DNA of 64,000 bases from a bacterium (GTDB taxonomy: Bacteria; Fidelibacterota; Fidelibacteria; Fidelibacterales; Fidelibacteraceae), in the NCBI GenBank assembly GCA_963676395.1, contig OY781066.1:1664001-1728000 (forward strand), read 5' to 3'. The notes under the pieces were generated by a model. It was not told the origin of the DNA, searched no databases, and worked only from the letters and a program-made list of their open reading frames with translations. Made by a program: the position numbers and the translations under genes. Below are positions 1 through 26,583 of the stretch, in pieces (positions within the stretch are counted from its first letter, which is position 1; each line of letters opens with the position of its first letter).

Positions 1-319
1 AAACATCAAGAATGGGTTGTGTATACTTACTAAAGTCGACTGTCTTACCGTTTTCTTCTTTCTTGATAAAGGAAAAATTTAAATTACCGGGGTCGTGGAA
101 AACCGCACCACCTCCTGATAAGCGGCGTACTACGGTAATATTGTTTTCTTTTACATAATCCAGGTTAATCTCGGCCAATGAGTTTTGATGTTTACCTACA
201 ATAATACTGGGAGCATTGATGTAGAGGTAAAAGCAATCCTGGGACTTATGCTTAAGTAGGTATTCTTCCGTAGCAATATTAAATGCCGGATTATGGGTTT
301 TAGAGCGTATACATAACAT
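1..319 (-). CDS. lplA: Lipoate-protein ligase A (5' part; runs off the window)
   Basis: Manual translation MLCIRSKTHNPAFNIATEEYLL...IIVGKHQNSLAEIN...VVRRLSGGGAVFHDPGNLNFS; AGGAG RBS upstream. Confidence 0.92.
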   Translation of the reverse strand, partial: MLCIRSKTHNPAFNIATEEYLLKHKSQDCFYLYINAPSIIVGKHQNSLAEINLDYVKENNITVVRRLSGGGAVFHDPGNLNFSFIKKEENGKTVDFSKYTQPILDV

Positions 320-397
320 GAGTATCTCCTGTTAAACTACAGAAGTATAGCGAATAATATTGATCCATCGCTATTTATTATCAACTATTACTGTATT

Positions 398-2521
398 TTA
401 ACTTTTGTATGGTAAGGTTAACCAGAACGTTACACCTTCATCCTTTTTAGAATTAACTCCGATTTTTCCACCGTGAGCTTCAATAGCCATTTTGCAGAAA
501 GTAAGGCCAATGCCTGAGGAATAACTATGTTCACTGTGCCCCGTATAAATTTGACTATAAATATTAAAAATGGATTCCAATTTGTCTTTCGGGATATACT
601 CACCTGTATTGTATATCTTAATTCTGCAAACATTTCTTCCTTTATCCTTTATCAAATCAGCTGTGACTTGAATGAGGCCATTTTCATTTTTATATTTTGT
701 GGCATTGGAAATGATATTGGTTAAAACGCGGATGATCAATTTTTCATCCACTTTGATTATAAGGTTTTTGGGCACTTTGTTTTCAAATTTAATATTGTTT
801 AAATTAATTTGGAATTCATTTTGTTTGTATGCCTCTTTTACCAGTTCATCTAAAGGAGCTTCCTTTAAGTTGATCTCAAGACGGGTTTCTTCATATTTGT
901 TAACATCAAGAATGTTTTGTATCAGATTTTGCATTTCTTTACCTGAATGGTAAATGAGTTCTCTGGTGTTTTCATTGATCTCAGGTAATTGCATAAATCC
1001 GATAATATTGCTTAAAGGATTTTTAAGATCATGTACCATCATTTTGGTGATTTCTTTTTTGAATCGATCCAGATCAATAAGTTTTTTATTTGCCTGATTC
1101 AATACATCCGCTTGATTTTGGATCATATTGTTTTGTAGTGTGACTTCACTGTTAATTTTTTGAAGTTCCTGTGTGCGCTTTTCAACTATTTCTTCAAGTT
1201 CATCATTATGCTTTTCAAGTTTGTTGCTGAGCTTTTCTACCTGAATATGCGCCAGAGATGAATTTTTTGAAATAATAAATGCCTGTACGAATAATAAACT
1301 GATCAGCCCGAAGGGTAAAAGATATGTTGATTGGATGATCTCAAGATAAAAAAGTATATCGTTGAGCATAGTAAATAGCAATAAAAAAGATCCTGCGAAC
1401 AGTAAACCTGAATTTGGTATTTTTTGAATAAGCGCGCGGAGGATCAGTATGAAAATCCCAACGATCATATAAACGGCTACTACCAGGATGGCATAAGAGG
1501 CATAAGTAAAGATTCTTGCGGGAAAAAGCAGGATGATAAGACATAATATAGCTGCCATACCTTGCACGCTTTTCTGAAACCAGTTTGGAATATTATCTGG
1601 TATCATGTTTTTAAGAAATGCCATCAAATAAATTCCAAATAAGGGTATTGAAATATATTCAATGCGAACGGCTAGTTCCCATGGCATGGATGTTGCAAAG
1701 TTGATCATTAATTTTTCACCGGTGGTACTCATGCGGAATAGAACAAATATGGCCATCATACTGAAGTACGCAGAAGATTTATCTGATCGGCGATAATGAT
1801 ATAAGGTCAGATGATAAAGAATAAGAAGCGTTATAATGCCAATCATTAAAAATTCAATACCGATTCTTATGTTTTTTATTTTACTCAGCGAGCTACCTTG
1901 AGCAAATAGAATAGGTTCGGTTGCACCACCGTTTCTATGATGGAAGTTTGATATTTGCAGTATGACTTCAATGCGATTGTTTTCGGCAAAAAAGATAAAA
2001 TCTTTTCTTTGCCAGGATGGTTTCATTTCTTTCTTACTTTTGCCCACTTCACCGGCTCCGCCAAAGAATTTTCCGTTGATCCACATTGCAAAAGCTGTTT
2101 CAAATTCTTTGATTTTAAAACCATAAATATCCGGTTTGTTAACATCTATGAAAAATCGATAGGTTCCATATCCCATAGGGCCGACTTTTTTACCGTCAAC
2201 TTCTAGACCATTCCATTCAAGGGGGATGTGTTGATACACTGGCTTTGGAAGTTTTTCTGGATTCTTGAAATCTTCGGGTGTAAGTAATTGGTTCCAGTAG
2301 AATTCAACATCACCCTCCAACGTAGAATATTTCTGGACTGAAAAATCTATATTACTGTAATCAAAAACACCCTTATGTCCTTTGATGTGAATATCATTTT
2401 TATTCGGGTGAAGCTGGAGCGTATAATTAACTGAATTAATGATTATACTAAGAAGAACTAAACCAATTACTAATAAAGTATGGTTTTGTTTAAGCCATTT
2501 AAGGAATTGATTATCTTGCAT
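398..2521 (-). CDS. Membrane sensor histidine kinase (7TM-DISM-like input, HisKA, HATPase)
   Basis: Extracellular domain, about 7 TM helices, H-box VHDLKNPL, N-box NIISNATKY, G-boxes YNTGEYI and SGIGLTFCK. Confidence 0.88.
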   Translation of the reverse strand: MQDNQFLKWLKQNHTLLVIGLVLLSIIINSVNYTLQLHPNKNDIHIKGHKGVFDYSNIDFSVQKYSTLEGDVEFYWNQLLTPEDFKNPEKLPKPVYQHIPLEWNGLEVDGKKVGPMGYGTYRFFIDVNKPDIYGFKIKEFETAFAMWINGKFFGGAGEVGKSKKEMKPSWQRKDFIFFAENNRIEVILQISNFHHRNGGATEPILFAQGSSLSKIKNIRIGIEFLMIGIITLLILYHLTLYHYRRSDKSSAYFSMMAIFVLFRMSTTGEKLMINFATSMPWELAVRIEYISIPLFGIYLMAFLKNMIPDNIPNWFQKSVQGMAAILCLIILLFPARIFTYASYAILVVAVYMIVGIFILILRALIQKIPNSGLLFAGSFLLLFTMLNDILFYLEIIQSTYLLPFGLISLLFVQAFIISKNSSLAHIQVEKLSNKLEKHNDELEEIVEKRTQELQKINSEVTLQNNMIQNQADVLNQANKKLIDLDRFKKEITKMMVHDLKNPLSNIIGFMQLPEINENTRELIYHSGKEMQNLIQNILDVNKYEETRLEINLKEAPLDELVKEAYKQNEFQINLNNIKFENKVPKNLIIKVDEKLIIRVLTNIISNATKYKNENGLIQVTADLIKDKGRNVCRIKIYNTGEYIPKDKLESIFNIYSQIYTGHSEHSYSSGIGLTFCKMAIEAHGGKIGVNSKKDEGVTFWLTLPYKS

Positions 2522-2689
2522 TTAAATTAACTCTCTCATTCAATTCATTGCTACTTATCTCTCAATATAATAAGCTACTATGTATTGAGTTTATATGCAA
2601 TGGTAATCTGTAATTGAGAACCGCTTATCAATAACCATTTATCGGTGCTTCGTAGATATAGCTTGAAAATCTATTGATTATACTGTTTT

Positions 2690-3223
2690 TCAATTTTTAA
2701 TTCTACTGCTACTTGGCCTGGAACCGAACCACCAGGTGATAGCTGTTGTCAATAAGAACATGATCTGCGCAATGGTTTCACGGTACATGATAACCACTTC
2801 GGGAGCTGACAGGCTGTTTTCAATACCACCGGCAAAATGATGAAGGTTTATGGCGATAATGGTTCCGATCACCAGTAAGTATAGCGTGATGGTTGGACGC
2901 ATTAACCCACGAATTGCATCCACGATTTTAATCTTGCTGTTTTTGCTTTGTGTTTTTACGCTTTCTTTGAAAGCTTTGAGCTCTTCGAGATCTTTATCAA
3001 TAGTACCCTGAGTTTTGATACCTTCGATCTTTTTTTCTGCCAGCTCAAGTTCATGCCGGTACTTTAATTCGGTTTCGGCTTTTTTTAGTTCGGCCATTTT
3101 GAATTCATATTCTGATTTAATCTTGTGGTTTTTTCGCTCTTCACGCTTGGTTAGCCAGGAACCCAATAGTCCTATAACTGCACCAAAAGCTGATGAAGAC
3201 AATACTTGCATTAAAACGCCCAT
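2690..3223 (-). CDS. Membrane protein resembling 3TM (GTA-type) holins
   Basis: N-terminal hydrophobic helix, coiled coil, then RGLMRPTIT, two TM helices and a WWFGSR basic tail. Confidence 0.5.
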   Translation of the reverse strand: MGVLMQVLSSSAFGAVIGLLGSWLTKREERKNHKIKSEYEFKMAELKKAETELKYRHELELAEKKIEGIKTQGTIDKDLEELKAFKESVKTQSKNSKIKIVDAIRGLMRPTITLYLLVIGTIIAINLHHFAGGIENSLSAPEVVIMYRETIAQIMFLLTTAITWWFGSRPSSSRIKN

Positions 3224-3407
3224 GCTTACCTCTTGAGAAATATTTAATTAAATAATATAATGCTGATATTATAAAAGTAAATAATATATGAGATATATGC
3301 AAGAAATTTTTCGTGAGCATTAAGAGGTGCTAATAAAGTTTTGTTCCGAGATGTAGAAATCCATCGAGATAAAGATTTCCTATATAAGCGGGAAAAATAT
3401 ATAAAAT

Positions 3408-3436
3408 AAAAAACCCTGGAAGTTCCAGGGTTCTTT
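3408..3436. terminator. Intrinsic terminator downstream of the OsmC gene
   Basis: AACCCTGGAA-G-TTCCAGGGTT inverted repeat with A/T tracts. Confidence 0.75.
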
Positions 3437-3455
3437 AATGCCTTAAAGTGATTGT

Positions 3456-3887
3456 TTATTTAACAATTTCTTTAATAACGCTGGCGTTTATGATATTGTC
3501 AGCGATTGGGCAGCGTTTGGTAATTTTTTCAAGATAGGCTTCTTTTTCTGCATCTGTCATGTCTGCATCAATTTTAACAAAAGCGCGAATTTCAACAAAT
3601 CCTGCACGACCTTCTTCAGTTTTTCCAAGAAGGAAATCTTTATCAATGTCACCTTCAACATCAACTTCGATACCATTTACGGCGAGTCTTTCCTGGTTGG
3701 CGATAATACGTCCAATTGCACAAATACATCCAGGAAGTGAAGATAAGAAAATTTCCATGGGGTTAGGGCCTAAGCCTTCACCGCCCATTGCTACAGGTTG
3801 GTCAATGATGAATTCATGTGAACAGTTTACAACGGTTTTAAATCCTTTGCCAATTTTGGCGCCAAGTTTCATGGTAGTTACTGCCAT
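3456..3887 (-). CDS. OsmC/Ohr family protein
   Basis: DQPVAMGGEGLGPNPME, LPGC and KRCPIA motifs. Confidence 0.9.
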   Translation of the reverse strand: MAVTTMKLGAKIGKGFKTVVNCSHEFIIDQPVAMGGEGLGPNPMEIFLSSLPGCICAIGRIIANQERLAVNGIEVDVEGDIDKDFLLGKTEEGRAGFVEIRAFVKIDADMTDAEKEAYLEKITKRCPIADNIINASVIKEIVK

Positions 3888-4282
3888 TTTTTTCCCTTTA
3901 TTTTAGGTTGTTTATTGAAAAGAACGTGAATTATATGATAAAAATCACATAAATCAAAATGATATATAATAAATATTTAGTTAAGACAGAGCAATTCTCA
4001 ATTGAGTCGTAATTTGTTTGTTTTATTTTAAGAATATACTCAAATAAAGGATCCATTGCTGTTTGTTATATTAAGGATTTTGGGATTTTATATTTCGAAA
4101 AAGATAGTCAAAATATCAAAAAATAAGCATTGATATTCGGTTCACTCAAAATATAGCTTAGTGTAAATAGTTAAGAAATTTGACTCAAATCATTGATATG
4201 GGAAAATTCTAGGGTCAACACAAACAAATACCCCGGAAGCGAGCAATGTATCGAGATACATTCCGGTACATGTAGGCATTTG

Positions 4283-4990
4283 TTAGATCAGTTTTTCACC
4301 GACCAATCCCACAACGAAACCCAGTATTGCGCCTAACGAGCTTAGATAATTTTTTTCTAATTTGCTTTCGGGGATAATATCCTGAATGAGTAAATATAGG
4401 ATACCACCAGCTGCAAATGTCATTAAGTATGAGGTCATGATGGGGTGATCACGAAGGAAAAAATGACCAATTAAGGCACCGGCGATCCCGGTAAAACTCA
4501 AGAAAAAGAAAATGATCAGGGTTTGTTTTGATGAAAATCCACTTTGAACCAGGTCTCTAAATGCATTAAATGCTTCGGGTAAATTCTGCAACCCAATAAA
4601 TATGGCCAGTAATGTCGCCATCTCATGATCCACGGCAAAAACAGAGCCTAGTGCAATGGATTCCGGAACAAAATCCATCATCATTGCCAGGAGCGTTGCG
4701 GTTTGTCCGCCCTTTTTTGATAGCTTTTGATCCAGAATCATAAATAAAATAGCACCTGTAAGAAAGGTGATGCATAAAGGTAGCCAGTTTAAAGTGCTTA
4801 AGCCTTTTGGTATTAATACAAGTGCCAATGCCGAAAGAATGATACCACCACCAAAAGACATAAAGGTATGTGTGATCTCATATTTTACCGGACTTTCTTG
4901 AATGTGATGATTGAAACTTCTTGCTAAAATACCGCCAATAAAGACAGTTATTCCTGCAAAACCCGAAAAAATAATTAATTCTGTTAACAT
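4283..4990 (-). CDS. ZIP family (ZupT/GufA-like) divalent cation transporter
   Basis: Multi-TM; DFVPESIALG, LQNLPEAF, FAAGGILYL..DIIPE. Confidence 0.82.
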   Translation of the reverse strand: MLTELIIFSGFAGITVFIGGILARSFNHHIQESPVKYEITHTFMSFGGGIILSALALVLIPKGLSTLNWLPLCITFLTGAILFMILDQKLSKKGGQTATLLAMMMDFVPESIALGSVFAVDHEMATLLAIFIGLQNLPEAFNAFRDLVQSGFSSKQTLIIFFFLSFTGIAGALIGHFFLRDHPIMTSYLMTFAAGGILYLLIQDIIPESKLEKNYLSSLGAILGFVVGLVGEKLI

Positions 4991-5011
4991 TATTTGTTTC
5001 CTATCAATGTT

Positions 5012-5293
5012 TTAACTACCGGCAAATGGTGTGCCTAAGATACCCAGCGCAAGTTCCATCCAGATCAAAATGAAGATCACAATGACCCCAATGATGACCG
5101 GGATGCGCCATTGGCTACTCTTTAATTTTATCGTCAGGAATTGCAGTAGCATCCCGAGCCCGAAGAGCATGAGGCCACCTATCATAAGATCAGCGATGCT
5201 CCAGCCTTCGCCCTCGCCGAATTGCGAGGCGATGTAGGGAATGAGCATGAGACCGTAAGAGCCGAGCAGTGTGAAAAAGGTTTTTTTCATCAT
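5012..5293 (-). CDS. Small 3-TM hypothetical membrane protein
   Basis: Hydrophobic ORF ending WMELALGILGTPFAGS; TTGTAA-17-TAATTT promoter-like motif directly upstream. Confidence 0.7.
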   Translation of the reverse strand: MMKKTFFTLLGSYGLMLIPYIASQFGEGEGWSIADLMIGGLMLFGLGMLLQFLTIKLKSSQWRIPVIIGVIVIFILIWMELALGILGTPFAGS

Positions 5294-5355
5294 GAGAAAA
5301 ATTAGGGGATTTTAAAGGGGTTTACAATATAAAATAGCCTGACATGTTGAACGAA

Positions 5356-5740
5356 GGGACTCCGCAAGGAGAATATATCGCTTGTCCCGCTTATCAATAC
5401 GACTTCATGAGTTTAATAGGGACTCCGTAAGGAGTGCAAGAAGAATATATCGCTTGTCCCGCTTATCAATACGACTTCATGAGTTCAAAAGGGACTCCGC
5501 AAGTAGTGCAAGAAGAATATATCGCTTGTCCCGTTCATCAATACGACTTCATGAGTTCAAAAGGGACTCCGCTAGGAGTCCAAGAAGAATATACCGCTTG
5601 TCCAGCTCATCAATACAATCTCATGAGTTCACCAGAGACTTCGCAAGGAGTGCCAGAAGAATATATCGCTTGTCCCGCTTATCAATACGACTTCATGAGC
5701 TTAAAAGGGACTCCGTAAGGAGTCCAAGAAGAATATACCG
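5356..5740 (+). repeat. Tandem array of 72-bp units, each with a REP-like hairpin GACTCC-GNNA-GGAGT
   Basis: Units start at 5356 (shortened), 5419, 5491, 5563, 5635 and 5707 (partial); consensus GGGACTCCGCAAGGAGTGCAAGAAGAATATATCGCTTGTCCCGCTTATCAATACGACTTCATGAGTTCAAAA. Confidence 0.95.
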
Positions 5741-5758
5741 CCTTATCACCCATACAAA

Positions 5759-5775
5759 CGACCCCGTAGGGGTCG
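5759..5775. repeat. REP-like palindrome at the tnpA 3' end
   Basis: CGACCCC-GTA-GGGGTCG; inverted copy at 6235-6251, direct copy at ~6526-6542. Confidence 0.9.
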
Positions 5776-5780
5776 AAGAA

Positions 5781-6217
5781 TTAATGTATATATTTCTCCT
5801 CAAACTCAACATTAAATTCTCTTAATAATCGTTTCGTCTCCTCAAAAGGATTTTCCTTTTTATGATGTTCCTCCTGATTTTTAATATATTTAATCAAATC
5901 GGGTATCGCCTCAGGAGTATATGTAAAAGCACCATAGCCTTCATTCCATCCTCTAAAATATGGAAAAATTTTCTTTTCAAGAATAAATGAAGCACTGGAA
6001 AGCTTGATGTCTTTTACTAAAGAGGAAAGAGAAAGAGTTGGGTGAAGCGAAATTAGAATATGGATATGATTGTTGTATCCACCCACTCTATAAACAAAGC
6101 ATTTTTTGTTCATTAGGGTTTTTGAGATATACTCGAAAAGACGTTCCCTGTTATTTTTGCTTATGCTGTTTTCCCAATTTTTGGTTTGGAATACGATTTA
6201 CGGGTATAGGTTTTCAT
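5781..6217 (-). pseudogene. tnpA: IS200/IS605-family (Y1 HUH, RAYT-like) transposase, frameshifted near the 5' end
   Basis: HUH motif HIH, LSSLVKDIKLSS, WNEGYGAFTY, catalytic YIKNQEEHH; ATG at 6217 (MKTYT) is out of frame with IVFQTKNWEN...ERLFEYISKTLMNKKC (span 437 nt, not a multiple of 3). Confidence 0.88.
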
Positions 6218-6234
6218 TTTCGTCCCTTATTCTT

Positions 6235-6300
6235 CGACCCCTACGGGGTCGGGGTTTTACTTTGTAACGTATATATTCTTCTTGCACTCCTTGCGGAGTC
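6235..6300 (-). repeat. Inverted REP pair upstream of tnpA
   Basis: CGACCCCTACGGGGTCG and TATATTCTTCTTGCACTCCTTGCGGAGTC, the reverse complements of the downstream motifs. Confidence 0.9.
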
Positions 6301-6433
6301 GTGAATATAAGCAGTTTTTTTTATCAAAATCGTTGTTATTCAAAAAACTGTGATGAACATCACGGAAAAGTAGAAATTTAATTTCCGAATGGATTAAAAA
6401 TGGAGATTCCATAGAAGCCTAAGAAGAACAAAT

Positions 6434-6570
6434 TGCTTGTCCCGTTCATCAATACGACTTCATGAGTTCAAAAGGGACTCCGCAAGGAGTCCAAGAAGAA
6501 TATACCGCCTTATCACCCATACAAACGACCCCGTAGGGGTCGAAGAATTATTGGATATATTTTACTTCAA
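6434..6570 (+). repeat. Direct duplicate of 5668-5783 plus the last codons of a second tnpA
   Basis: About 115-bp near-identical copy; the minus strand then reads EVKYIQ* versus EEKYIH* in the first tnpA. Confidence 0.85.
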
Positions 6571-6608
6571 CTTTAACCGTCATCTCAGTTTTTAATTTTA
6601 CCACGGGA

Positions 6609-6773
6609 TCAGACCTTCCCCGACTTGTTGTCTAAAGCGACCCAAAAACAGCTGCTGTTCTTTAGAATGCGATAGTGTGTTTCCGGAAGCGGCGGATTCG
6701 ACCAACCGACAAAAAAACCTGTCAACTGCTCGTTGTTGATCTTTGTGATATCATTGATGTATTCCAGTGCCAT
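6609..6773 (-). pseudogene. Truncated GNAT acetyltransferase (N-terminal 54 aa only)
   Basis: MALEYINDITKINNEQLTGFFVGWSNPPLPETHYRILKNSSCFWVALDNKSGKV*; the GFFVGWxNPPxPETH start is typical of a GNAT family, and the acetyl-CoA motif is missing. Confidence 0.65.
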
Positions 6774-6809
6774 TTTTATCTCTGTAATCTAATTGTTCTG
6801 CACCGTGAT

Positions 6810-8636
6810 TTAGCGCGGTGACAATAAAACCAGTCCCCATTTCTCTTTAACCGTTACCGCATCGTTAAAGGTTATGTCGGAAATCAGATCCTTACATTTT
6901 TTCATCTCAAGAGTGGATATGTCAAATTCATATTCATCATCCCCGTTATTGATCACAACAAAGATTGTCTCGTTCTTGTATTTGCGTCCAAAGATCAGGA
7001 CACCCTTGTCATCGTCGGTCAGCACGGTTTTGTACGAACCTATTTGCAGGGCTTTGTGCTCATTGCGAATAGCGATCAGTTTTTTATAATGATCGAGCAG
7101 ATCGTGGTTGACCGCCACCTTGTCCGGGGTGTGTTGGCTGCCATCGGGATTGCTAACTTCGTCGTCGTAATCAATATTGTCCCAGATCATAGGCTTGCGG
7201 CAGTCCGGGTCGTTGCCGCCCCACATGCCGGCCTCGTCGCCGTAGTAGATCATGGGCGCGCCCACATAGGTCATTTGCATGATGACGAACAATTTCTGCA
7301 GCGCAATGTCCTCCGCCTGTGGTTTTCGTGGAGAATAATCTGGATTATCGATGGGCTTGGACGCTCCGAAATAGTGACCCCAATCACGAAAATTACCAAT
7401 GCCGTTCTTGCGGTTTACAATATGCGAGCCAATGCGGTTGGCATCGTGCGAACCGAAGAGGTTCATCGAGACCTCCGCCACGCCCGCAGGATAGAGGTTC
7501 TGCGGTTCCTGCAGTTTTTTATCATACTCGCTGGCCATGATGCGGTTCTTGCCTTCATTGAAAAAGAATTCTGCGGAAGCGAAAGCGAAGTTGTAGTTCA
7601 TCTCCCCGTCGAATTCGTCACCCTGCATGTAGGGCTGCACTTGTTCCGGTGGGGCGATGATCTCGGCGGTCAAATAGGCCTCCGGATTGATAGACCGCAC
7701 TAGCTTGCGCCAATCTTTCCAGAAGGGATGCGCAATGCAGTAGGCCACATCCAGACGCCAACCGTCGATGCCGTGCCGTGTGCCCATGTCGCCGGGATTC
7801 ATCCAACGCCGGGTGGCGTTAAAAATGTAATCCTTCGGACCTGCGACGATGCCGTTCTCATCTTCGCGCAGTTCGGGCAGGGACTTCACGCCGAACCAGC
7901 CTTCATAATCGAAGCTCGTTCCTTTTTCCTTGTTGTTCCAGGATTTGATGATAAACCAGTCCTTATAGGGCGAGTTCTGCTGCTTCTCGATCACGTCCTG
8001 AAAGGCGAAGCTGTGCATGCCCATGTGATTGAAAACCCCGTCGAAAATGATCTTCATGCCGCGTTGGTGCACCTCATTGATCAATTTGAGCGCGAGTTTG
8101 TCGGCTTGGGTCCATATCCATGTAGAAGGATCCAAAGGATTTTCTTCGGCCATCAGTTGGCGATCACCCTCGGGGTCGGGACCAAAATTCGGGTCGATAT
8201 GATGATAGCTTTCGCCGTCGTATTTATGTAGGGAGGGAGACACGAAGACCGGATTCAGGTAAATGGCCGTAATGCCCAGATCCTGAAGATAGTCGAGTTT
8301 ATCAATGACACCCTGTAGGTCCCCGCCGTAGCGACGGCGCAGCAGGTGCTTCCACAGTTCCGGCTCGTCGTTAGTTTTTTCATAGTCCTGTAGTACATAC
8401 CAGTCAGATCCCCAGGGATGGATGTGCCATTCCTTAGGTGCATCCTGCGGGTCCGCGCCGAGAATATCTTTGACGGTCGGGTCATTGGACGGATCCCCGT
8501 TGTGGAAACGCTCCGGAAAAATTTGGTACCAAACGACGGATTTGGCCCATTGTGGGACGAATTCTTTGTTTTGCATGCTGCACCCTACATGAAGTAATGA
8601 GATGATTATTAAGGCAAGATAAACGGATTTTTTCAT
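6810..8636 (-). CDS. GH13 alpha-amylase / cyclomaltodextrinase-neopullulanase-like lipoprotein
   Basis: Likely start MKKSVYL with lipobox HVGC; WYQIFPERF, GGDLQG, DGVFNH, DGWRLDVA, AEI, SHD, YYGDE, DPDCR. Confidence 0.92.
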   Translation of the reverse strand: MKKSVYLALIIISLLHVGCSMQNKEFVPQWAKSVVWYQIFPERFHNGDPSNDPTVKDILGADPQDAPKEWHIHPWGSDWYVLQDYEKTNDEPELWKHLLRRRYGGDLQGVIDKLDYLQDLGITAIYLNPVFVSPSLHKYDGESYHHIDPNFGPDPEGDRQLMAEENPLDPSTWIWTQADKLALKLINEVHQRGMKIIFDGVFNHMGMHSFAFQDVIEKQQNSPYKDWFIIKSWNNKEKGTSFDYEGWFGVKSLPELREDENGIVAGPKDYIFNATRRWMNPGDMGTRHGIDGWRLDVAYCIAHPFWKDWRKLVRSINPEAYLTAEIIAPPEQVQPYMQGDEFDGEMNYNFAFASAEFFFNEGKNRIMASEYDKKLQEPQNLYPAGVAEVSMNLFGSHDANRIGSHIVNRKNGIGNFRDWGHYFGASKPIDNPDYSPRKPQAEDIALQKLFVIMQMTYVGAPMIYYGDEAGMWGGNDPDCRKPMIWDNIDYDDEVSNPDGSQHTPDKVAVNHDLLDHYKKLIAIRNEHKALQIGSYKTVLTDDDKGVLIFGRKYKNETIFVVINNGDDEYEFDISTLEMKKCKDLISDITFNDAVTVKEKWGLVLLSPR

Positions 8637-16961: not shown

Positions 16962-16962
16962 G

Positions 16963-17821: not shown

Positions 17822-18034
17822 TTAACTTTTAACTTCGACCGCTTTGGGGTCGGGACCGTATTTGTTTTCCTTCGCTTCACCCTCGGTTACATTCAGGACA
17901 AAGATCCATATGCTTCCTATAACCGGAATCAGTTCGAGGAGTAACATCCAACCACTTTTACCAATGTCATGAAGCCGTCTGACAGCAAGGGCTAAAAATG
18001 GAATGATCATAATGATTAGATATTTGTTATCCAT
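17822..18034 (-). pseudogene. DUF805 family membrane protein, apparently internally deleted
   Basis: GAGGT RBS and MDNKYL jump straight to IIPFLALAVRRLHDIGKSGW...NKYGPDP; the usual N-terminal GRA-R-E-W motif and TM segments are absent. Confidence 0.65.
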
Positions 18035-18047
18035 ATTTACCTCTCAA

Positions 18048-18596: not shown

Positions 18597-18731
18597 GTAA
18601 AGCCTTTTATTATTTTAATTTATAAAAAGTATTGTAAATATGTTAGAATGACAAGTGGTATTTCTTGCAATATGCTGAGAATTAGAGAAATCTGCGCAAT
18701 CTGTGGGTAGTGTCGTTTCAATTACTCTAAA

Positions 18732-18845
18732 TCATGAATAGATCTCTCCCACAGGCGCCGTGCGCTTGATCCGGCGTTTTTTTATTGCTTTCATTAGCGG
18801 AAATAGTAAATCAGTCTGAGGAGAGGGAAGTTTGATCATTTCCAT
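18732..18845 (-). pseudogene. Decayed 5' fragment of the nitroreductase gene
   Basis: MEMIKLPSPQTDLLFPLMKAIKKRRIKRTAPVGE versus MKNIIPLPPPQTNLSFPLMKAIKERRTKRRFAAEAVGE. Confidence 0.85.
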
Positions 18846-18983
18846 TATATGTGAATTTCTTGCTTTAGAAGCCAAAAATGGTTGGTAATAATGTTTTTCT
18901 CAACCCATCAACGAACAGAAAGAGAGGCGATCCTTTCGTCATTTCAAAAAGAATATTTTGTGTTTGTCCTTCTTTTTAAAAGA

Positions 18984-19943
18984 TCATGATGAAAATAATT
19001 GTTTATAATGCTTTCTGACAGTGTTTTGATATTTCTGCTTCCCGAGGTCTGATAAAAATGATTTGTCGATAAATTTTAACATCTCTTCTTCTTTTTCCCG
19101 ACTTTGTTCTATGATCGTATCTAAGATATTATCTTTAATATTCCAGCGTTTTCCCAATTCAATGAAATGCTTTATGGAGTATTCATAAGGTGTTGTTAAT
19201 AAATGATCCTTTGTTCGTTCCATTTCTTTAAAAAGGTTCATGGCTATTTGGGTGTCATCAATATGAAGTTTTGTGTTCATTAGATCATAAGAAGGGGAAA
19301 GGATCATATCGCCGTTTTGTGATTCAAGAAGTGAAATATTTTTCAAGTGGACATCACCATTTCCGGTCAAAAAATTGAAGATCAGTATTTTTATAAATTT
19401 AATTTTATCAAGTGGATTCAGGTTATGACCAACGTCTTCATACGTTGCGGAATTATACTTGTTAATTCCAGAATTGCTGATACTTAGTATAGACGTAAAA
19501 TCCTCCTGGCGCAACGGGTCGCCATTATTATCTCGGTCAAATCTGCGGGTTAGATACACCGGCTCGCCATCGGCAAAATACATGAAAGCACATTTTGCAG
19601 TATCAATATTGAATATTTGGTCAGCCATTTGCATCGTCAAGTGTTCATTGGCGGGAGAATCTAAATACAGATCCCATCTTGAATCGAGGAAAGGTTTAAC
19701 GATATACATCGATTCCAAATCAATATTCGGCATAAGTAATTTATTTTTATTTCTTCCTATAAACCCTTTTGCCTGAACGCCGGAAAGGCTAAATCCAGTC
19801 GGTCGGCCGATGTTTCGTTTTCTAATATCATTCCAATTAAAATCAAGCGTCACCGGAACTTTTGATCTGTCAAAAAGCTTGCTTTCACATGCTGAACAAA
19901 AGCCATCTACATTGTTTTTTAAACATCCATGACAATATGACAT
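18984..19943 (-). CDS. HipA-family Ser/Thr kinase toxin (HipT-like, C-terminal domain only)
   Basis: FSLSGVQAK loop, ANEHLTM, TRRFDR, GNGDVHLKN, LSPSYDL; N-terminal CxxC...CxxC. Confidence 0.9.
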   Translation of the reverse strand: MSYCHGCLKNNVDGFCSACESKLFDRSKVPVTLDFNWNDIRKRNIGRPTGFSLSGVQAKGFIGRNKNKLLMPNIDLESMYIVKPFLDSRWDLYLDSPANEHLTMQMADQIFNIDTAKCAFMYFADGEPVYLTRRFDRDNNGDPLRQEDFTSILSISNSGINKYNSATYEDVGHNLNPLDKIKFIKILIFNFLTGNGDVHLKNISLLESQNGDMILSPSYDLMNTKLHIDDTQIAMNLFKEMERTKDHLLTTPYEYSIKHFIELGKRWNIKDNILDTIIEQSREKEEEMLKFIDKSFLSDLGKQKYQNTVRKHYKQLFSS

Positions 19944-20266
19944 TAGTTTTCATCTTTCTTTATTGTAATTGCCCCTATTGTATCATGACCACACGTATTA
20001 ATCAATAAATTCCAATCATCATGAATATCAATTCCCAAGGCTTTACATTGCATTTGCCTGTTATAGCCCTCTGAAAGCATTGATTGAAAAAAAGGAAAAA
20101 GCTGTTTAGCATGATATGTTTTTTGAGATTTTGGTAAATTGATTGAAATAGGATAAAGTTCATTATTTCTTATAAAATCATCATCGTATTCAAAGTGATA
20201 ACCAGTTTCATCCCGCCATAATAAGCCGGCAAGATACTTGTCTTTATAAATGACTTTGGCTCTCAT
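19943..20266 (-). CDS. HipA N-terminal (couple_hipA, HipS-like) protein
   Basis: AGLL, YHFEYD, PISINLP, LFPFFQSMLSEG, DTIGAITI; its stop overlaps the kinase start. Confidence 0.88.
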   Translation of the reverse strand: MRAKVIYKDKYLAGLLWRDETGYHFEYDDDFIRNNELYPISINLPKSQKTYHAKQLFPFFQSMLSEGYNRQMQCKALGIDIHDDWNLLINTCGHDTIGAITIKKDEN

Positions 20267-20471
20267 TATGCTTTCTTAACTCCAATTTGATCTCCAGATC
20301 CAGGTAATAGAATATTTCGTTAAGCGTTTCAAAAGAAGGATTTGCCTTCCCATTTTCGATAAGGGATAATGTTACAACCGTCAATCCGGTATAAGCGGCA
20401 AGTTCTTTTTGTGAGATGGATAAGACCTTCCGCCTTTCTCTAATCTTCTTTCCTAATTCTCGTTTGTTCAT
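20244..20471 (-). CDS. XRE-family HTH regulator (HipB-like)
   Basis: IRERRKVLSISQKELA...LSLIENGKANPSFETL. Confidence 0.9.
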   Translation of the reverse strand: MNKRELGKKIRERRKVLSISQKELAAYTGLTVVTLSLIENGKANPSFETLNEIFYYLDLEIKLELRKHNESQSHL

Positions 20472-20479
20472 TGTGCCAG

Positions 20480-20690
20480 TTAAATTATAATTAAACTATT
20501 ATTACGAATATAATTGTTTGGGTGCTCTATGTCAATAATATTTAATTATAATTAAAATATTATATCAAACAACACTGTTTTGGTCTAAATGTTAATAATA
20601 TTAAAATATAATTAAACTATTATCGTAATAATGATGTTTGCCTGTAATATTGTGTGGAATATTAAAATATAATTAAAGTATTATAACATA
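20480..20690. promoter_or_regulatory. Four phased palindromic operators upstream of the hipB-like gene
   Basis: TTWAAWTATAATTAAA cores with TATAAT at 20486, 20547, 20607 and 20668; perfect palindrome at 20541-20556. Confidence 0.7.
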
Positions 20691-20714
20691 TTATATTCCC
20701 CATCCCAGGAATGC

Positions 20715-20904
20715 ACGCACCGGCTCTTGGCGCGCTCGGTGGCCTCGTAAGTAATGCCGCAGGCCGCCCAGAGCAGATTACTTAGATCCTGCTCGCCGAC
20801 CGCCTCAGCGGCAAAACGTCGTTTTGTCCGGCGTTGGTTGATCGCTTGCATGAGGGGGAAGGTGAGGTTGGTTTGGGGCGGGGCAGAGACATAATATTTT
20901 TTAT
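20715..20904 (-). pseudogene. Second, longer 5' fragment of the nitroreductase gene
   Basis: Collinear with 11060-11243 for about 60 codons; start mutated to ATA, 1-bp deletion in codon 9, similarity ends after AKS. Confidence 0.92.
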
Positions 20905-20986
20905 GAATGAGTTCCTTATTTTGTTACAAGAAAGAGAAGGGGTTTAAAATTGATGGTTGGAGAGTTAGGAGTCAGAGAAGTGATAT

Positions 20987-23900
20987 TTATTCCTCTCTTA
21001 TAAACTTCAATTCTGGTAAAACTATTCTAAACTCTTTATCCAATTTATCTTTATGCCAAAATATAATATAATTAACAAGAGCTTCTGAAAGCTTATAACC
21101 TTTGTTTTTGTAATCCTCGATTTTCTTTTTAAAGCTTCTTGAAAATTTTAGCACGCAATTTCCATCTTTATCTGAACAGCCATCATCATTAACTATAAGT
21201 TCATCACCACCTTTAAGCGTGGAAATATATTTCTGTCTTTTAATAAAATAATCTAACCAAATGTCTTTATGTGATAAATGTAATAGCAGAAGATTTGATG
21301 TTTCGTATGGGGTATCATCATACTTGCGTTCAATATTATTACAAGAATAATTGTCTAAATAATTCCCATTTAAATGAATGGTTAGATTTTCTTTTGCTCT
21401 AGTCATTGCGACATATAATTCTCTTTTGATAGCGTCAGTACGTGGAGAAATATTTCTTAGCATCAAAAACACATTATCAAATTCTTTACCCTTTGCTTTA
21501 TGGTTTGTTGAAACTAATATTGTTTCTCTAATGGTACTAATAAAATCCTCAAGCTTTGATTCTTTTACAAAGACCTCAAAATCGGATTTGAATTTCTTTT
21601 CCGGATTACTAAGTTCAAATGCTTTAATCAGATGAATACATATTTCAATTTTTGAGCTTTCTTTATAGTTATTCCATAGTTTTCTCTTAGCTGATTTCCA
21701 GTCCTCTGGGGATATCGTGTATTTGTCTTCCGAGAAATTAAGTTGATTAATAAAATATCTTACTTCAAGTATGTTGTGTAAACTAAACCAATCGTTGCTT
21801 TGGATTAATTTTGCTTTTATTCCTTTATTAAGTAATAGTCCCGTTATTTGTAAGGCTTCGGAATTCTCATGAGTTAATATGCACGTGCTCCCATTTAGGT
21901 CAGAGTTAAGTATGTCCATAATTACCGGTTTCGATAGATTTGGACTGGAATATTTTATTATCTTAAGTTTCCCGTTTTCACTTGAGTGAGGAATGATCGG
22001 ATTTGTTTTAAGTCGTTTTTGGATTCCCGTAGCAAACTGATTGGTAAATTCAACAAGGTTGGCCCTACTGCGATAATTTTCTATTAGCTCAATCTTTTTA
22101 GCATTTTGTTCAACAATGAATCTTTCAAGATATTCAGAACTAGCTCCCCTAAATTCATAAATATTTTGATCATCATCGCCAACAGCAATAACTCTCATTC
22201 CTTCATTTTTATCCATTAATATTTTAATTAACTCAAATTCATGCTTGTCCATGTCTTGGGCTTCATCAATTACCAAAACGGTTTTTGTAATTCGGTTTGA
22301 TTCAATATCTCCAGATCTGATTTTCTCAATCGTGTTTTTTATTATTGTTTCTGATTTCTCGATTGAACCGACCTTTCCTAGTAGATCAAAACAATATGAA
22401 TGAAAGGTTTTTATTTCAATATATGCTGCAGCATTTCCTATTAAAGTAAATAATCGTTTCTTGAACTCTGAGGCTGCTGCTCGTGAAAAAGTTACCATCA
22501 ATAATTGTTCGTGTTTAACATCTTCCATTAATAATAATGAAGCAAGCTTATGTACCAAAACTCTGGTTTTACCACTTCCGGGACCGGCTGTTACAGCAAT
22601 ATATGGAGAACTATTATCATTGATAATGCTGAGTTGTCTAGGGGATAACTCACCGAATAGTTGGCTGAATTTTTCAGGGGTGATATTTTGCTTTATTTCA
22701 TTTTGTCTGCTGCCCTTAAAATATTTATTTAGAAATGAAGAATAATTAAGTTGAAAATAATCTTCGACAAATTGTAGTGCCGATTTGTAATCCTGAATCA
22801 TTTTTTTTGCATATTCACCTACAATATGAATTTGCTGAACTCTCTGCTCATAGAATTGATTTAGTTTTTTATAATCTTCTGCCTTATATCTAACTTTATT
22901 GTCTTTTTCAAGTCGTTCAATTGTGAGTTTATTATATATGACTAAAAATCCACCTTCAATTTTTATAGCATCAATTCTTGAAAGATAGAAGAGGGCATCT
23001 TCAACATCCGAAATCGAAATTTGGAGTTTAAAAAGAGAGTTACTATTCTCATATTGTTGCTTTAATTCATGAACGGAAAACTCAACGTATAGGTATTCTT
23101 TGTTAGCATCCGATCTAGAAAGGTTTTGACTGCTTTTCCCATATAGATAATCGGTTATAAAGCGAGCTAAATCATGTCTTCTTTTTAATCTATTTCTTAA
23201 TTCATGTACCGGATAATTTGATACAACAGAAAGGTGGTTATTAGAAGTGTTACTTTGCTTTCTCTTAAGCCAGTTCTTAATCACCCAAAAGTTTATGATC
23301 GTTTTTAGCTTGTTAGGTGAAATATCTGTGCAGCCATTTTCTTCTGCCAATTCATTTAGCTCTTTAATGTGGAAAGATTTTTCCTCTTCATCAAATTGAG
23401 TTAATAAGAATTTCTCTATTTTGCTAATTGAATTAACAATTCTAAGTGATCGGTTTTTATTTTCTCCTTGCTTAATAAAAGCTGTCAAATCTTTTGTATC
23501 TGCTAATATTTTTTCTTCTCGTAATAAATTTATTGCATTGATCACATCTTCTTTTACAATGCCTAAATGGTCTGATATGTAGTCTACTCTCGATTCTGCC
23601 ACTTCGTCAGTAGCTTGTTTTCTGCTTTTACTGGAAAATAGTTTTTTTATAATTCTGACAGCATCTTGTCTTTGTTTGGTGTTGAACTTTTCCGACACAT
23701 TAATTTTGTCAATAGCCTCTTGAGCATTTTTTGTTAGAATACTATTAGCAAATATTCTAGGTGTATTTTGTCCGCGTTTTAGGTAACCTGACTCTTCTAA
23801 GGCTGAAATTGCAGTTGTCACTCTTGTCTCGATCTCAACGACATTATCATCCCATCCGGCTTTCCTTGCAATTTCCAGGGCTGAATTTGAAACACTTGAC

Positions 23901-25789
23901 CTGAATTTAGTTATTTCCTTAATAGCAACCCATATCTGCTGGATCTCCTTAATATTTAACTTAGTCTGGTTAAGTAATATGAAGTGCTTGCTAAGATCTT
24001 CCTCATTAAAAAGTACATAACAATCAGCTGATATTTTTTCATCCCTTCCAGCTCTGCCAGCTTCTTGGACATAGTTTTCAAGAGAATCAGATAATTCGTA
24101 ATGAATCACCATACCGACATCTTTTTTATCTACTCCCATACCAAATGCTGAAGTAGCAACCATGATATCAACATCGCCTCTAATAAATGCATCCTGATTT
24201 TCTGATTTCTCCTGCTTATCCATTTTACCATGATAGGGTTTTGCAGAATATCCATCCTTAGAAAGTTTTTCAGCAATTTGATAAGCTCTTTTAGTACGAG
24301 AAACATAAATAATGGTTGGACAGTTTTTCCCGTCAATGAGATTGCGTAGACTCTCATACTTATCTACTTCCGTAGCCTTAGGGATTACCTTGTAATGTAG
24401 ATTAGTACGGGAGGCATTTGAGCTAAAGATTTCTAGTTCTAAGTCTAATTTATCTTTAAAATAATCCTTAATATCTTGAATAACATTTTGCTTGGCAGTT
24501 GCTGTAAAACAAGAAACCGGAATCGGGTTTTTAAGTTTTTTCTTTTCTTGTAATGATTTTATGAAATCACCTATGTATAGATAATCAACTCTAAAATCTT
24601 GACCCCAAGCAGAAAAACAATGTGCCTCATCAATAATGAAACGTACAACATTTCTACCAAGTAATAAGCGCTCGATTGATCTTGATCTTAAAGATTCTGG
24701 TGAAATATAGAGAAGAGATGTTGTGCCATTTTCGACTCTTTCAAAAGATTTTCCTCTTTCGATGGGATCCAGCAAACCGTTTATTGTAACTGCTTCGGTG
24801 ATATTTGCTTTTTCTAAATTATCTACCTGATCTTTCATCAAAGATTGCAATGGAGATATGACAACAGTTAAGCCTTTAACATATTCACCACTCATTAACG
24901 CAGGGACTTGAAAGGCTAAAGATTTTCCACCGCCGGTTGGAAATACCGCAATTAAAGATTTATTTTTTATCGCTGCCTCAACGGCTTCTTTTTGTAGTTC
25001 TTTGCCGCCAAAACTTCTGTATGAAGAATATCCGAAGTAATTTTTTAATGCCATATCTGCATTAAGAAAACTGTTGCAATATCGGCATCCCCTCATGCAG
25101 GGATTATTTCTTAATAAATACATTATCCGTTCAATATCAGGATAATTCTTGATCACCCAGGGAGGTGTAATAGAGTATCGGCTATCAGTATTTATTAAGG
25201 CTAGAGAATAAGCTAATTCAACAGGATATTCTTTTATTGTTTTTCTTAATTGGAAATTTTGACAAATTTTATCAAAGAATTTATTCGTTATTAGATTTTC
25301 AATATTTCGGTTACCAGGAAAATATTCTACAACATCAAAGAAAGCTGAAAATTCCATTTTATCCTTGAGTAATGTATAATATATTTGTTTTAAGTCGTTG
25401 TCAAGTTTGTGAAATGCTTCGACCTCATCGCGGAAGAGAGCTCTTGCTTTTATAGCATCATTCAGAGGATTGTTTAGTTCTTCTGTTTGTAGTTTGTCGT
25501 CTTTTAAAAGTGCATGATATGGCTTTTTAGGAAATAGTAGTGGAGATAAAAATAAAGTATCAATGGCTTTTATTTTGGATACATTTATATCTGTTGCTTT
25601 TGCAATAAATTTCAAGTCATGATTAATGATGTTGTGCCCACAAATAAATTCATTTTGGTTAATAAATGCAAGAAGTACTGACATGGATTTAGAGTGGAAT
25701 TTCATTCCATCATTAGATACTCCACCTATATCAAGTATTTGTTGGCTTTTGGCTTCTACTTCGGTATCTATGAAGGCAATTTTTTTCAT
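20987..25789 (-). CDS. Multidomain helicase: DEDD-like exonuclease + RecQ (SF2) + UvrD/Rep (SF1) fusion
   Basis: FIDTE/GHNIINHD/DTL; PTGGGKS, DEAH, TATA, ATSAFGMG, QEAGRAGRD; AGPGSGKT, DEAQD, VGDDDQNIYEFRGA, ENYRS, HKAKGKEF, YVAMTRA. Confidence 0.92.
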   Translation of the reverse strand: MKKIAFIDTEVEAKSQQILDIGGVSNDGMKFHSKSMSVLLAFINQNEFICGHNIINHDLKFIAKATDINVSKIKAIDTLFLSPLLFPKKPYHALLKDDKLQTEELNNPLNDAIKARALFRDEVEAFHKLDNDLKQIYYTLLKDKMEFSAFFDVVEYFPGNRNIENLITNKFFDKICQNFQLRKTIKEYPVELAYSLALINTDSRYSITPPWVIKNYPDIERIMYLLRNNPCMRGCRYCNSFLNADMALKNYFGYSSYRSFGGKELQKEAVEAAIKNKSLIAVFPTGGGKSLAFQVPALMSGEYVKGLTVVISPLQSLMKDQVDNLEKANITEAVTINGLLDPIERGKSFERVENGTTSLLYISPESLRSRSIERLLLGRNVVRFIIDEAHCFSAWGQDFRVDYLYIGDFIKSLQEKKKLKNPIPVSCFTATAKQNVIQDIKDYFKDKLDLELEIFSSNASRTNLHYKVIPKATEVDKYESLRNLIDGKNCPTIIYVSRTKRAYQIAEKLSKDGYSAKPYHGKMDKQEKSENQDAFIRGDVDIMVATSAFGMGVDKKDVGMVIHYELSDSLENYVQEAGRAGRDEKISADCYVLFNEEDLSKHFILLNQTKLNIKEIQQIWVAIKEITKFRSSVSNSALEIARKAGWDDNVVEIETRVTTAISALEESGYLKRGQNTPRIFANSILTKNAQEAIDKINVSEKFNTKQRQDAVRIIKKLFSSKSRKQATDEVAESRVDYISDHLGIVKEDVINAINLLREEKILADTKDLTAFIKQGENKNRSLRIVNSISKIEKFLLTQFDEEEKSFHIKELNELAEENGCTDISPNKLKTIINFWVIKNWLKRKQSNTSNNHLSVVSNYPVHELRNRLKRRHDLARFITDYLYGKSSQNLSRSDANKEYLYVEFSVHELKQQYENSNSLFKLQISISDVEDALFYLSRIDAIKIEGGFLVIYNKLTIERLEKDNKVRYKAEDYKKLNQFYEQRVQQIHIVGEYAKKMIQDYKSALQFVEDYFQLNYSSFLNKYFKGSRQNEIKQNITPEKFSQLFGELSPRQLSIINDNSSPYIAVTAGPGSGKTRVLVHKLASLLLMEDVKHEQLLMVTFSRAAASEFKKRLFTLIGNAAAYIEIKTFHSYCFDLLGKVGSIEKSETIIKNTIEKIRSGDIESNRITKTVLVIDEAQDMDKHEFELIKILMDKNEGMRVIAVGDDDQNIYEFRGASSEYLERFIVEQNAKKIELIENYRSRANLVEFTNQFATGIQKRLKTNPIIPHSSENGKLKIIKYSSPNLSKPVIMDILNSDLNGSTCILTHENSEALQITGLLLNKGIKAKLIQSNDWFSLHNILEVRYFINQLNFSEDKYTISPEDWKSAKRKLWNNYKESSKIEICIHLIKAFELSNPEKKFKSDFEVFVKESKLEDFISTIRETILVSTNHKAKGKEFDNVFLMLRNISPRTDAIKRELYVAMTRAKENLTIHLNGNYLDNYSCNNIERKYDDTPYETSNLLLLHLSHKDIWLDYFIKRQKYISTLKGGDELIVNDDGCSDKDGNCVLKFSRSFKKKIEDYKNKGYKLSEALVNYIIFWHKDKLDKEFRIVLPELKFIREE

Positions 25790-26082
25790 TAATTATTCGA
25801 TTCTTTTTATAAATATTCGATTTGCCTAGTGTGTGACTAAATATGTGTTTGTACTTTAGATTACCACTTCCCTTATAATTGTTATATAAATTACTGTAAA
25901 TATGTATTAACCGCAATTGATTATTTGCGCTTGAAAGAAGAGTATAGATTTAACTTAAATGGCTATCATTATATTAGTGAGTAGTGTTTAATGAGTTAGA
26001 ATTATTTTTAATATTTTTCATTAGAGTATGAAAGTTCATCGGTATTCGGTAATTGCCAAGAAATACTTGCCTGGCATTCGTG

Positions 26083-26583
26083 TTAAGATTTAATATGACG
26101 CTTTAATTTTTTAATGGCCCACTCATAATGCGAGCTGGTACTGGAAATACAGTAGGCGCCCAAGGAGGTGGATCCGGTCCATGAAAAGTGTTTTTTTACG
26201 AATAATTCTTCATCACTGAAAGAATCGATAAGCGCTATCACATCGGCATGACTTTGTGTGAGCTTTTTGATAGATTCATCCAAAGGTGTATGCTGATGTT
26301 TTTTCCATATTTCCACATTCATATCGGGATAGGTTTTCCAATTGTAAGGCTCAGGCAAGAAAGGTGAAACTGTCCCGCTTGTATTGTTTTTTACCCACTT
26401 GATCTGCAACAGGTGCCATTCGTAAAGATGAATAAGCACATCGCGCAGATTGCGATCTCTATCTTCAAAAGCAAAGCTTGCATTTTGCAATTCGGGACCC
26501 ATTGCATCGATGAGAGCAAAGAGCTTGTTAAAATTGTTTTCGGCGGCTGTGAGTAGTTCGGATTTGGATTTTGGGCGGGGCAT
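26083..26583 (-). CDS. ClbS/DfsB (DUF1706, DinB-like) four-helix protein
   Basis: MPRPKSKSELL, RDRNLRDVLIHLYEWH, PYNWKTY, SSTSSHYEWA. Confidence 0.82.
   Translation of the reverse strand: MPRPKSKSELLTAAENNFNKLFALIDAMGPELQNASFAFEDRDRNLRDVLIHLYEWHLLQIKWVKNNTSGTVSPFLPEPYNWKTYPDMNVEIWKKHQHTPLDESIKKLTQSHADVIALIDSFSDEELFVKKHFSWTGSTSLGAYCISSTSSHYEWAIKKLKRHIKS

Follow-up and report, generated by a model that had tools for sequence, protein, structure and literature searches.

The fmt–rsmB interval

We analysed a 64,000-nt stretch of DNA (the window; positions 1,664,001 to 1,728,000 of contig OY781066.1, assembly GCA_963676395.1) from a bacterium of the family Fidelibacteraceae. Its 2.34-Mb genome is here labelled G000; other genomes carry labels of the form G0xx and retrieved loci labels of the form L0xx. 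The window opens inside a block of accessory genes of foreign origin lying between fmt and rsmB, and within this block we found two truncated 5' pieces (scars) of a nitroreductase (NTR) gene of which an intact copy is also present. The fmt gene lies at -1785 to -886, so that 885 nt separate its stop codon from the window; with rsmB beginning at 27077, the gap between the two genes amounts to 27,962 nt and is filled with antisense genes, lplA included. In Escherichia coli, by comparison, def, fmt and rsmB are direct neighbours. Beyond the block, rsmB and then metH follow on the plus strand. Compared across genomes, the fmt–rsmB gap is a genus-wide, integrase-free hotspot for accessory, defence and toxin–antitoxin genes. 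The features of the block and its right flank are as follows, in window coordinates.

1..27076 (window part), minus strand: hypervariable fmt/rsmB interval in its G000 version; credible genes all antisense to fmt and rsmB
2..319, minus strand: lplA, its 3' part beyond the window; lplA is present in the interval of G006 and G032 and absent from the intervals of G016 and G002
398..3223, minus strand: 7TMR-DISM histidine kinase and orf177, with no counterpart found in the interval of G006 or G032
3456..3887, minus strand: OsmC-like gene, common to G032 (78% amino acid identity)
4283..5293, minus strand: ZIP transporter and orf93 (small membrane protein), orf93 being common to G006 (71%)
5364–5741, 6229–6300 (inverted) and 6421–6570, no strand assigned: 72-nt repeats resembling repetitive extragenic palindromic (REP) elements, flanking a decayed IS200-like Y1 (RAYT-type) gene
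5781–6197, minus strand: the decayed Y1_Tnp (RAYT-type) gene (Y1 domain 5781–6113)
6612..6773, minus strand: 5' fragment of a GNAT acetyltransferase gene (aa 1–53 of ~130), ending at the REP block
6810..8732, minus strand: GH13 alpha-amylase-family lipoprotein, 50% GC, common to G006 (84% amino acid identity)
8882..10180, minus strand: orf164 and orf152, the latter 53% identical (amino acids) to its G032 counterpart, which there adjoins rsmB
10641..11243, minus strand: intact NTR, 57% GC
11379..11486, minus strand: probable GH13 5' relic with two in-frame stops; a lipobox and a WYQIFPERF-like stretch are colinear with GH13
11518..15521, minus strand: low-GC module (25–27%) of orf182a, an OmpA-domain protein and an AAA_13 RloC-like ATPase
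16113..18596, minus strand: module of 40–46% GC with orf182b, a DUF805 3' fragment, an HTH_17 protein (16963–17439) and an alpha/beta hydrolase
18744..18870, minus strand: NTR scar 2, with its own 5' leader, an ATG at 18845 and codons 1 to ~38
18984..20688, minus strand: putative hipBST cassette (HTH_3, Couple_hipA, HipA_C)
20700..20935, minus strand: NTR scar 1, with 5' leader, former start and codons 1 to ~62–70, 54% GC
20987..25789, minus strand: RecQ-like plus UvrD-like double helicase of 1600 aa, with DpdF/GajB-like domains according to PADLOC
26083..26583, minus strand: DUF1706/DinB-like gene, the cargo gene nearest to rsmB
27077..28381, plus strand: rsmB, the conserved right flank

Between 2 and 26583 we took 26 open reading frames (ORFs) as genes. 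All of these lie on the minus strand, a co-orientation like that of an integron, and 19 of them have Pfam matches; none of the 13 plus-strand ORFs of at least 83 aa has a Pfam match at E ≤0.01. A preliminary description of this DNA, made from its letters and ORFs, had placed every credible coding sequence from lplA to the DUF1706 gene on the minus strand and had noted GC jumps between modules, and both observations hold. Module GC content runs from 25% to 57%, with the OmpA (24.5%) and RloC-like (25.9%) genes at one extreme and the GH13 (49.7%) and NTR (56.7%) genes at the other, in a genome of 38.1% GC. In its length the same-strand run does not stand out: crudely called genes of the genome form 13 such runs of at least 20, the longest of 56. 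Cumulative GC skew has its minimum at ~1.19 Mb and its maximum at ~0.04 Mb, so that the plus strand is expected to be the leading strand at 1.5–1.7 Mb, where (window included) it holds 29% of crudely called genes. The entire hotspot lies on the presumed lagging strand.

Turnover of the interval among relatives

The interval could be compared with both its fmt and its rsmB flank in five complete cases, to which partial views and a metagenome locus are added below.

G016: gap of 0 kb, with fmt at 18493–19449 and rsmB from 19458 (L003); no content
G005: 4.3 kb; kinase fragments
G032: 4.8 kb; orf152, OsmC, ODP/flavodoxin protein, lplA
G002: 11.0 kb; hipBST, ORF6N, AlaDh, CMD, TacAT, MjaI restriction enzyme and methylase, YhcG
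G000: 27.96 kb; the present block
G006, partial view: lplA, orf93, intact RAYT, GH13, glyoxalase, MFS, NTR 3' piece
G013 and G017, partial views: hipBST near fmt
L013, metagenome locus: TacA, a 1614-aa DEAD/MZB helicase and a 928-aa ORF, then rsmB

Across these genomes the content of the gap is mostly unshared, and defence or toxin–antitoxin genes make up much of it. The G000 interval overlaps that of G032 only in lplA, OsmC and orf152, and that of G002 only in hipBST. Differences from G032 fall in the lplA/OsmC, OsmC/orf152 and orf152/rsmB sub-intervals, and those from G006 in the lplA/orf93 and GH13/NTR sub-intervals. An interval variable across relatives had been predicted, with lplA and rsmB as its borders; the cargo does vary, but the flanks are fmt and rsmB, and lplA is itself cargo. 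The further claim of an ordered, integron-like array entered only from the rsmB side is not supported by these comparisons, since content differs in at least three internal sub-intervals and, in addition, between GH13 and NTR. Cargo is mostly antisense to the flanks in the relatives too, G002 having 4 sense and ~10 antisense ORFs. An orthologue of the histidine kinase, sought in five relatives, was found in none, the best match being 32% identical over the C-terminal part. A metagenome scan with RsmB returned no conspecific contigs (best match 72%), and three of the loci equal the G002 version.

Nitroreductase scars

When the proteins encoded in the block were searched by tBLASTN against the window itself, one of the checks suggested with the preliminary description, two strong off-diagonal matches emerged. 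Both were to NTR, and both were also recovered by a whole-genome search, giving two truncated relics homologous to an intact neighbour gene. At the DNA level both scars retain ~30 nt of NTR leader as well as the position of the start codon. The alignment of scar 1 runs from ~30 nt upstream of the former start codon through ~20700–20716, and positions 20720–20881 match NTR aa 9–62 with 85% amino acid identity (E 9e-28) and 84% nucleotide identity. Its start codon now reads ATA, and a 1-nt deletion follows shortly after; its NTR-like GC content stands among neighbours of 32–37%. Scar 2 matches NTR aa 3–38 at 18744–18842 (61%, E 5e-7) and keeps, besides its ATG, the N-terminal motif of the family (compared with 17 homologues), followed by a 13-nt gap and a stop. 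The two scars resemble one another little, their best local alignment covering only 37 nt at 78%.

We counted 18 synonymous and 10 non-synonymous substitutions between scar 1 and the resident NTR (synonymous divergence, dS, 0.74; ratio of non-synonymous to synonymous divergence, dN/dS, 0.115), and dN/dS between the resident gene and its G008 orthologue is similar (0.075–0.134). Judged by these substitution patterns, scar 1 and the resident gene appear to have diverged under purifying selection, scar 1 having been a working gene in a separate lineage for most of its history. With such values it is therefore read as the relic of a separate functional allele and not as a fresh local copy. The scars had been expected to lie nearer to orthologues of relatives than to the resident copy. 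For scar 1 the opposite was found (82–84% nucleotide identity to the resident against 75–79% to G008), although G008 supplied the sole orthologue and the comparison is correspondingly weak.

The positions of the scars can be set against module borders obtained independently from relatives. Homology to the hipBST cassette (71–72% at the DNA level) occurs in 4 of 21 other genus genomes and covers exactly 18991–20681, between the scars; scar 1 begins ~20 nt past one edge of this homology, and the leader of scar 2 lies ~115 nt past the other. The scars sit at module edges that are defined independently. A third NTR junction comes from G006, where the same locus holds an NTR 3' piece (aa 172–200).

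The resident NTR is itself of foreign origin. Among 18 other genus genomes an orthologue was found in G008 alone (77%), as a single gene at another locus, while homologues of at most 63% identity are scattered across many phyla. G000 encodes one further member of the NTR family, at a distance of 1.2 Mb and with only 45% identity. We retrieved 21 NTR loci from other genomes, of which 18 were usable (L031 yielded no query, and L035 and L037 were 3' ends only, at contig edges); none of the 18 showed a second NTR piece within ~8 kb, a result that speaks against both an element targeting NTR and tandem paralogues as a regular arrangement. Between NTR and orf152, at 10356–10467, lies a 14-nt tandem repeat of 6.5 copies, exactly where contigs assembled independently from run X1 break.

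Other relics and gene debris

The preliminary description had listed two further 5' pieces, a scar of GH13 and a fragment of GNAT. While both NTR scars proved solid, the GH13 relic is probably real but marginal: its amino acid identity is 32% (tblastn E 0.63), and its Smith–Waterman score of 56 ranks third of 330 pairings of intergenic DNA with N-termini, a score reached by none of 1000 single shuffles and by 3 of 60 shuffles done family-wise. The GNAT piece, 52% identical to a 130-aa GNAT of the relative G033 (E 2e-16), is by this match a genuine 5' fragment, although Pfam is silent on it; no intact GNAT copy lies downstream of it.

Debris in the block is not always 5'. The DUF805 ORF at 17822–18034 is a 3' part (profile positions 54–111 of 111), and the Y1 transposase lacks its N-terminus. 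The DUF805 ORF starts 14 nt past the orf182b stop in another frame, and the two may be one frameshifted gene, or the ORF a 5'-truncated gene. Pfam run on 141 stop-to-stop intergenic fragments detected scar 1 only, as a weak NTR match (E 0.019), being blind to scar 2, the GH13 relic and the GNAT piece because these are too short.

Defence and toxin–antitoxin cargo

Enrichment of the block in defence genes had been claimed and is partial, with ~3 of ~10 modules concerned with defence or toxin–antitoxin functions. hipBST systems consist of an HTH antitoxin, a HipS resembling the N-terminal part of HipA, and a kinase HipT without that domain. The cassette between the scars encodes, in order, HTH_3 (75 aa), Couple_hipA (107 aa) and HipA_C (319 aa) proteins, and this tripartite domain arrangement identifies it as a predicted hipBST-type toxin–antitoxin locus. 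In the four relatives that carry it, the hipA gene is followed by fmt (G002, G017), by a 102-aa ORF and then DUF3024 (G013) or by GrpB (G015), and in none of the four by NTR. Four AT-rich repeats spaced 60–61 nt apart lie directly upstream of hipB (20476–20688) and are partly kept in G015 and G017; they look like multiple HipB operator sites, a putative assignment.

The RloC-like AAA_13 protein corresponds to the PADLOC model PDC-S06 (E 1e-298). Full-length homologues of 36–39% identity are carried by 13 plasmids; phage records gave partial matches only. Of the 400 phylum genomes sampled, 4 contain a full-length homologue of the double helicase (60–65%), as against 0 of the 21 genus genomes, and in none of the four does NTR appear in the short downstream flank available. 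These four homologues, L039–L042, come from other families. In all of them no more than ~25–870 nt separate the end of the gene from an end of its contig, a hint that the DNA downstream is variable or repetitive.

Recombinases, attC sites and repeats

As in the preliminary description, no integrase and no attC-like site was found. Of the five PF00589 matches in the genome none lies in the window (1664001–1728000), so that no intI adjoins the array, and PF00239 (serine recombinase) has no match in the whole genome. The nearest tRNA gene is at 48012, and an Rfam scan of 1–30000 gave no match. A crude attC scan, using the R''/R' consensus, found 4 R''/R' pairs against 5.5 expected (50 shuffles), and the lone well-paired one falls inside the helicase coding sequence.

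The decayed RAYT-type Y1 gene is the sole mobility gene in the interval. It lies among five tandem REP-like repeats, one inverted copy and one further copy, spanning 5364–6570, an arrangement (a Y1/HUH transposase between REP hairpins, inverted on one side) that corresponds to a REP/RAYT unit with an N-terminally truncated gene. No copy of the 72-nt repeats was found elsewhere in the genome. At the equivalent spot, G006 carries the RAYT gene intact (147 aa). Help from REP/HUH sites in forming the junctions had been suggested and is not borne out, as the REP hairpins gather at the dead RAYT and none lies at the scars. GC-rich hairpins in general, considered as junction markers, number 14 in the block; they too cluster at the RAYT unit, with 0 at the scars. 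Four short intergenic elements (11276–11331, 15891–15983, 18716–18752 and 26838–27067) are present in 1–4 copies in G000 and in many copies (75–97%) in other genus genomes. They sit at borders of modules that differ in GC content, and one abuts the end of scar 2; we considered these repeats as a source of the joints and established no link.

Origin of the block

We lean towards the explanation, and consider it rather probable, that the fmt–rsmB block is a core-gene-flanked, integrase-free hotspot remodelled by homologous and illegitimate recombination, in which the NTR pieces on either side of hipBST are relics of earlier, once-functional alleles. Modules of very different origin would have been gained, replaced and eroded inside the def–fmt–rsmB string without a resident recombinase, through homologous recombination via the conserved flanks or common cargo genes combined with illegitimate joints. 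Each NTR relic would have been severed by the joining of an incoming segment within its 5' part, a complete NTR persisting or arriving downstream. For the joining we favour homology-facilitated illegitimate recombination (HFIR), with NTR or the DNA just downstream as the putative anchor and the illegitimate joint nearby; NTR-anchored HFIR would account for relics that consist of NTR 5' ends but differ in length. Three joints in one 600-bp gene, counting the two 5' relics here and the 3' relic in G006, suggest that NTR homology takes part. Whereas the hotspot, its turnover, the lack of recombinases and the scars with their separate functional past are observed, the joining mechanism and the sequence of imports are inferences.

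Several points weigh against this explanation or limit it. The closest relatives, none of them conspecific, are only 70–78% identical in RsmB, and recent events are out of sight. Cargo followed by an intact NTR of a scar's allele, the expected donor arrangement, was seen in no relative, and HFIR and its direction are therefore putative. At E ≤1e-80, none of the 400 other sampled genomes of the phylum contains a match to the RloC-like gene (26% GC). With no close homologue there, the module cannot have first entered through homology to a relative's copy of it. The same result goes against the preliminary description, which had the cargo arriving as DNA from relatives. ComEC and DprA are encoded in the genome, but they say little, being present in non-transformable control genomes as well. 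Nor does the model account for the cargo's strong antisense bias, which is seen both here and in relatives. Finally, the relative decay of the two scars fits, if anything, the order expected from growth at the rsmB end better.

Such growth was the mechanism first proposed: an ordered array extended only at its rsmB end by DNA of relatives, each import being anchored by homology on its rsmB side and ending illegitimately within the donor's next gene, so that the scars are starts of donor genes and the newest cargo is nearest to rsmB. The 16.9 kb of G000-specific DNA between orf152 and rsmB, which are neighbours in G032, would suit it, as would the less decayed look of scar 1, the one nearest to rsmB, and the leaders and start codons of both scars. 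We nonetheless regard it as unlikely. It leaves the internal differences from G032 and G006 unaccounted for, sits ill with the position of hipBST in relatives (beside or near fmt, not rsmB), and has to derive from relatives an RloC-like module that has no close match in 400 sampled genomes of the phylum. The donors that it predicts, with cargo followed by NTR, were found neither among the four hipBST relatives nor among the four RecQ–UvrD homologues with their short flanks, and it offers no reason why two donor fragments should end within the first 70 codons of one 600-bp gene. Equally doubtful, in our view, is a more specific role for NTR as a recombinase-free landing pad, on which an incoming segment would pair by homology and be closed by an illegitimate joint a few dozen codons into the older copy, whose 5' end would be pushed upstream together with promoter and leader while a fresh complete copy stayed behind. 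If this were true, the array would amount to a dated register of imports, functionally analogous to an integron and situated in a defence hotspot, and it would mirror the C-terminal displacement proposed for Rhs and type VI secretion system (T6SS) loci.

There is a slim chance that the layout of scar, cargo, scar, cargo and intact gene, which is what tandem integration at a 5' end would leave, records site-specific islands that entered the NTR 5' end one after another, each carrying a replacement 5' end, and whose integrases were later deleted; the HTH_17 protein at 16963–17439 has an excisionase-type fold. Yet the window holds no tyrosine recombinase and the genome no serine recombinase, the scars end at different codons (~38 versus ~62–70) and share only 78% over 37 nt, 0 of 18 NTR loci elsewhere have a second piece, and four relatives have hipBST in the same hotspot free of NTR pieces. 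Little credence goes to the idea that the scars are old tandem NTR paralogues, eroded and cut by unrelated insertions and deletions. A dS of 0.74 with a low dN/dS would also fit long-lived paralogues, and other genes of the interval (DUF805, RAYT, GNAT) have decayed. Against it, none of the 18 NTR loci elsewhere has a nearby copy or piece, the G008 orthologue is single, and the other family member of G000, at 45% identity, is 1.2 Mb away. An assembly artefact, with alternative strain haplotypes stitched in series, comes to mind given the apparent metagenome origin of the genome and the hypervariability of the locus, but we consider it highly improbable. Independent Logan contigs from run X1 span 12109–27500, 10432–12137 and 8000–10429 with 0 differences, crossing the junctions, and the scars (82–84% and ~61–83% like the resident gene) carry disabling changes of their own, beyond what an assembler join would produce. 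This check indicates that the assembly is not chimeric; since X1 is probably the source sample, it tests the assembler and not the biology. Joints suggested by the contig layout were disregarded, their sides being at most 23 nt of AT-rich DNA.

Relation to known systems

Returning to remodelling of a core-gene-flanked hotspot by homologous and illegitimate recombination, the block is on present evidence an instance of a known phenomenon and not a new mechanism or an integron-like machine. Many hotspots of horizontal gene transfer lack mobile elements and show homologous recombination in the core genes on either side (Oliveira, Touchon, Cury and Rocha 2017, PMC5635113). As far as the part of that study used here goes, the likeness extends to bounding core genes, turnover of content, concentrated gene transfer, the lack of an integrase, prophage, integrative and conjugative element or tRNA, and the proposed driver, housekeeping recombination acting on exogenous DNA. 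The present block differs from what is described in that part in that its cargo is nearly all antisense and includes, for one cargo gene, relics of alleles that are apparently xenologous.

Sequential displacement of the HFIR type has been proposed for orphan immunity arrays of the Vibrio cholerae T6SS and for Rhs loci (PMC5361080). In the sections drawn on here, that work likewise describes truncated relics beside a complete copy, no integrase and HFIR with one anchor. The relics there are 3' ends with immunity genes downstream of a conserved 5' anchor, within one functional system, whereas the block has 5' ends, located upstream of the intact gene, with cargo between them that is functionally unrelated. 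NTR-anchored HFIR, as favoured above, would be the mirror image of that displacement. The core defence hotspots of Pseudomonas aeruginosa (PMC10250203), to judge from the portion of that report considered, similarly hold defence systems at a fixed, core-flanked position, but the cargo here is only partly defence-related.

With integron cassette arrays the block shares a co-oriented, compositionally mixed row of genes. It differs in having no intI and no attC-like site, in its multi-gene modules and long intergenic regions, and in a turnover that is not confined to one end.

The hotspot is of interest because it splits the widely conserved def–fmt–rsmB string in a little-studied, mostly uncultured genus, and because defence and toxin–antitoxin systems are gathered there without the machinery of mobile elements. 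As molecular fossils left by past joints, the two NTR relics are unusually clean.

Repeats near fmt, rsmB and TacAT in relatives

In L014 (= G002:C44), a direct repeat of ~270–300 nt (3559–3858 and 5033–5303; 96% identity) surrounds the TacAT pair within the hotspot and has the look of a non-coding repeat element. A 213-nt direct repeat on both sides of TacAT in L014 was considered as a second case of scar, cargo and scar; it appears to be a non-coding repeat and was not counted. Stretches of 30–43 nt upstream of fmt and of rsmB are alike crosswise between genomes (84–97%), L007 1709–1738 and L014 9942–9984 pairing with 26979–27008 and -1858 to -1816 of the window. This likeness may reflect a shared promoter or repeat that allows rsmB to be expressed after the operon was split.

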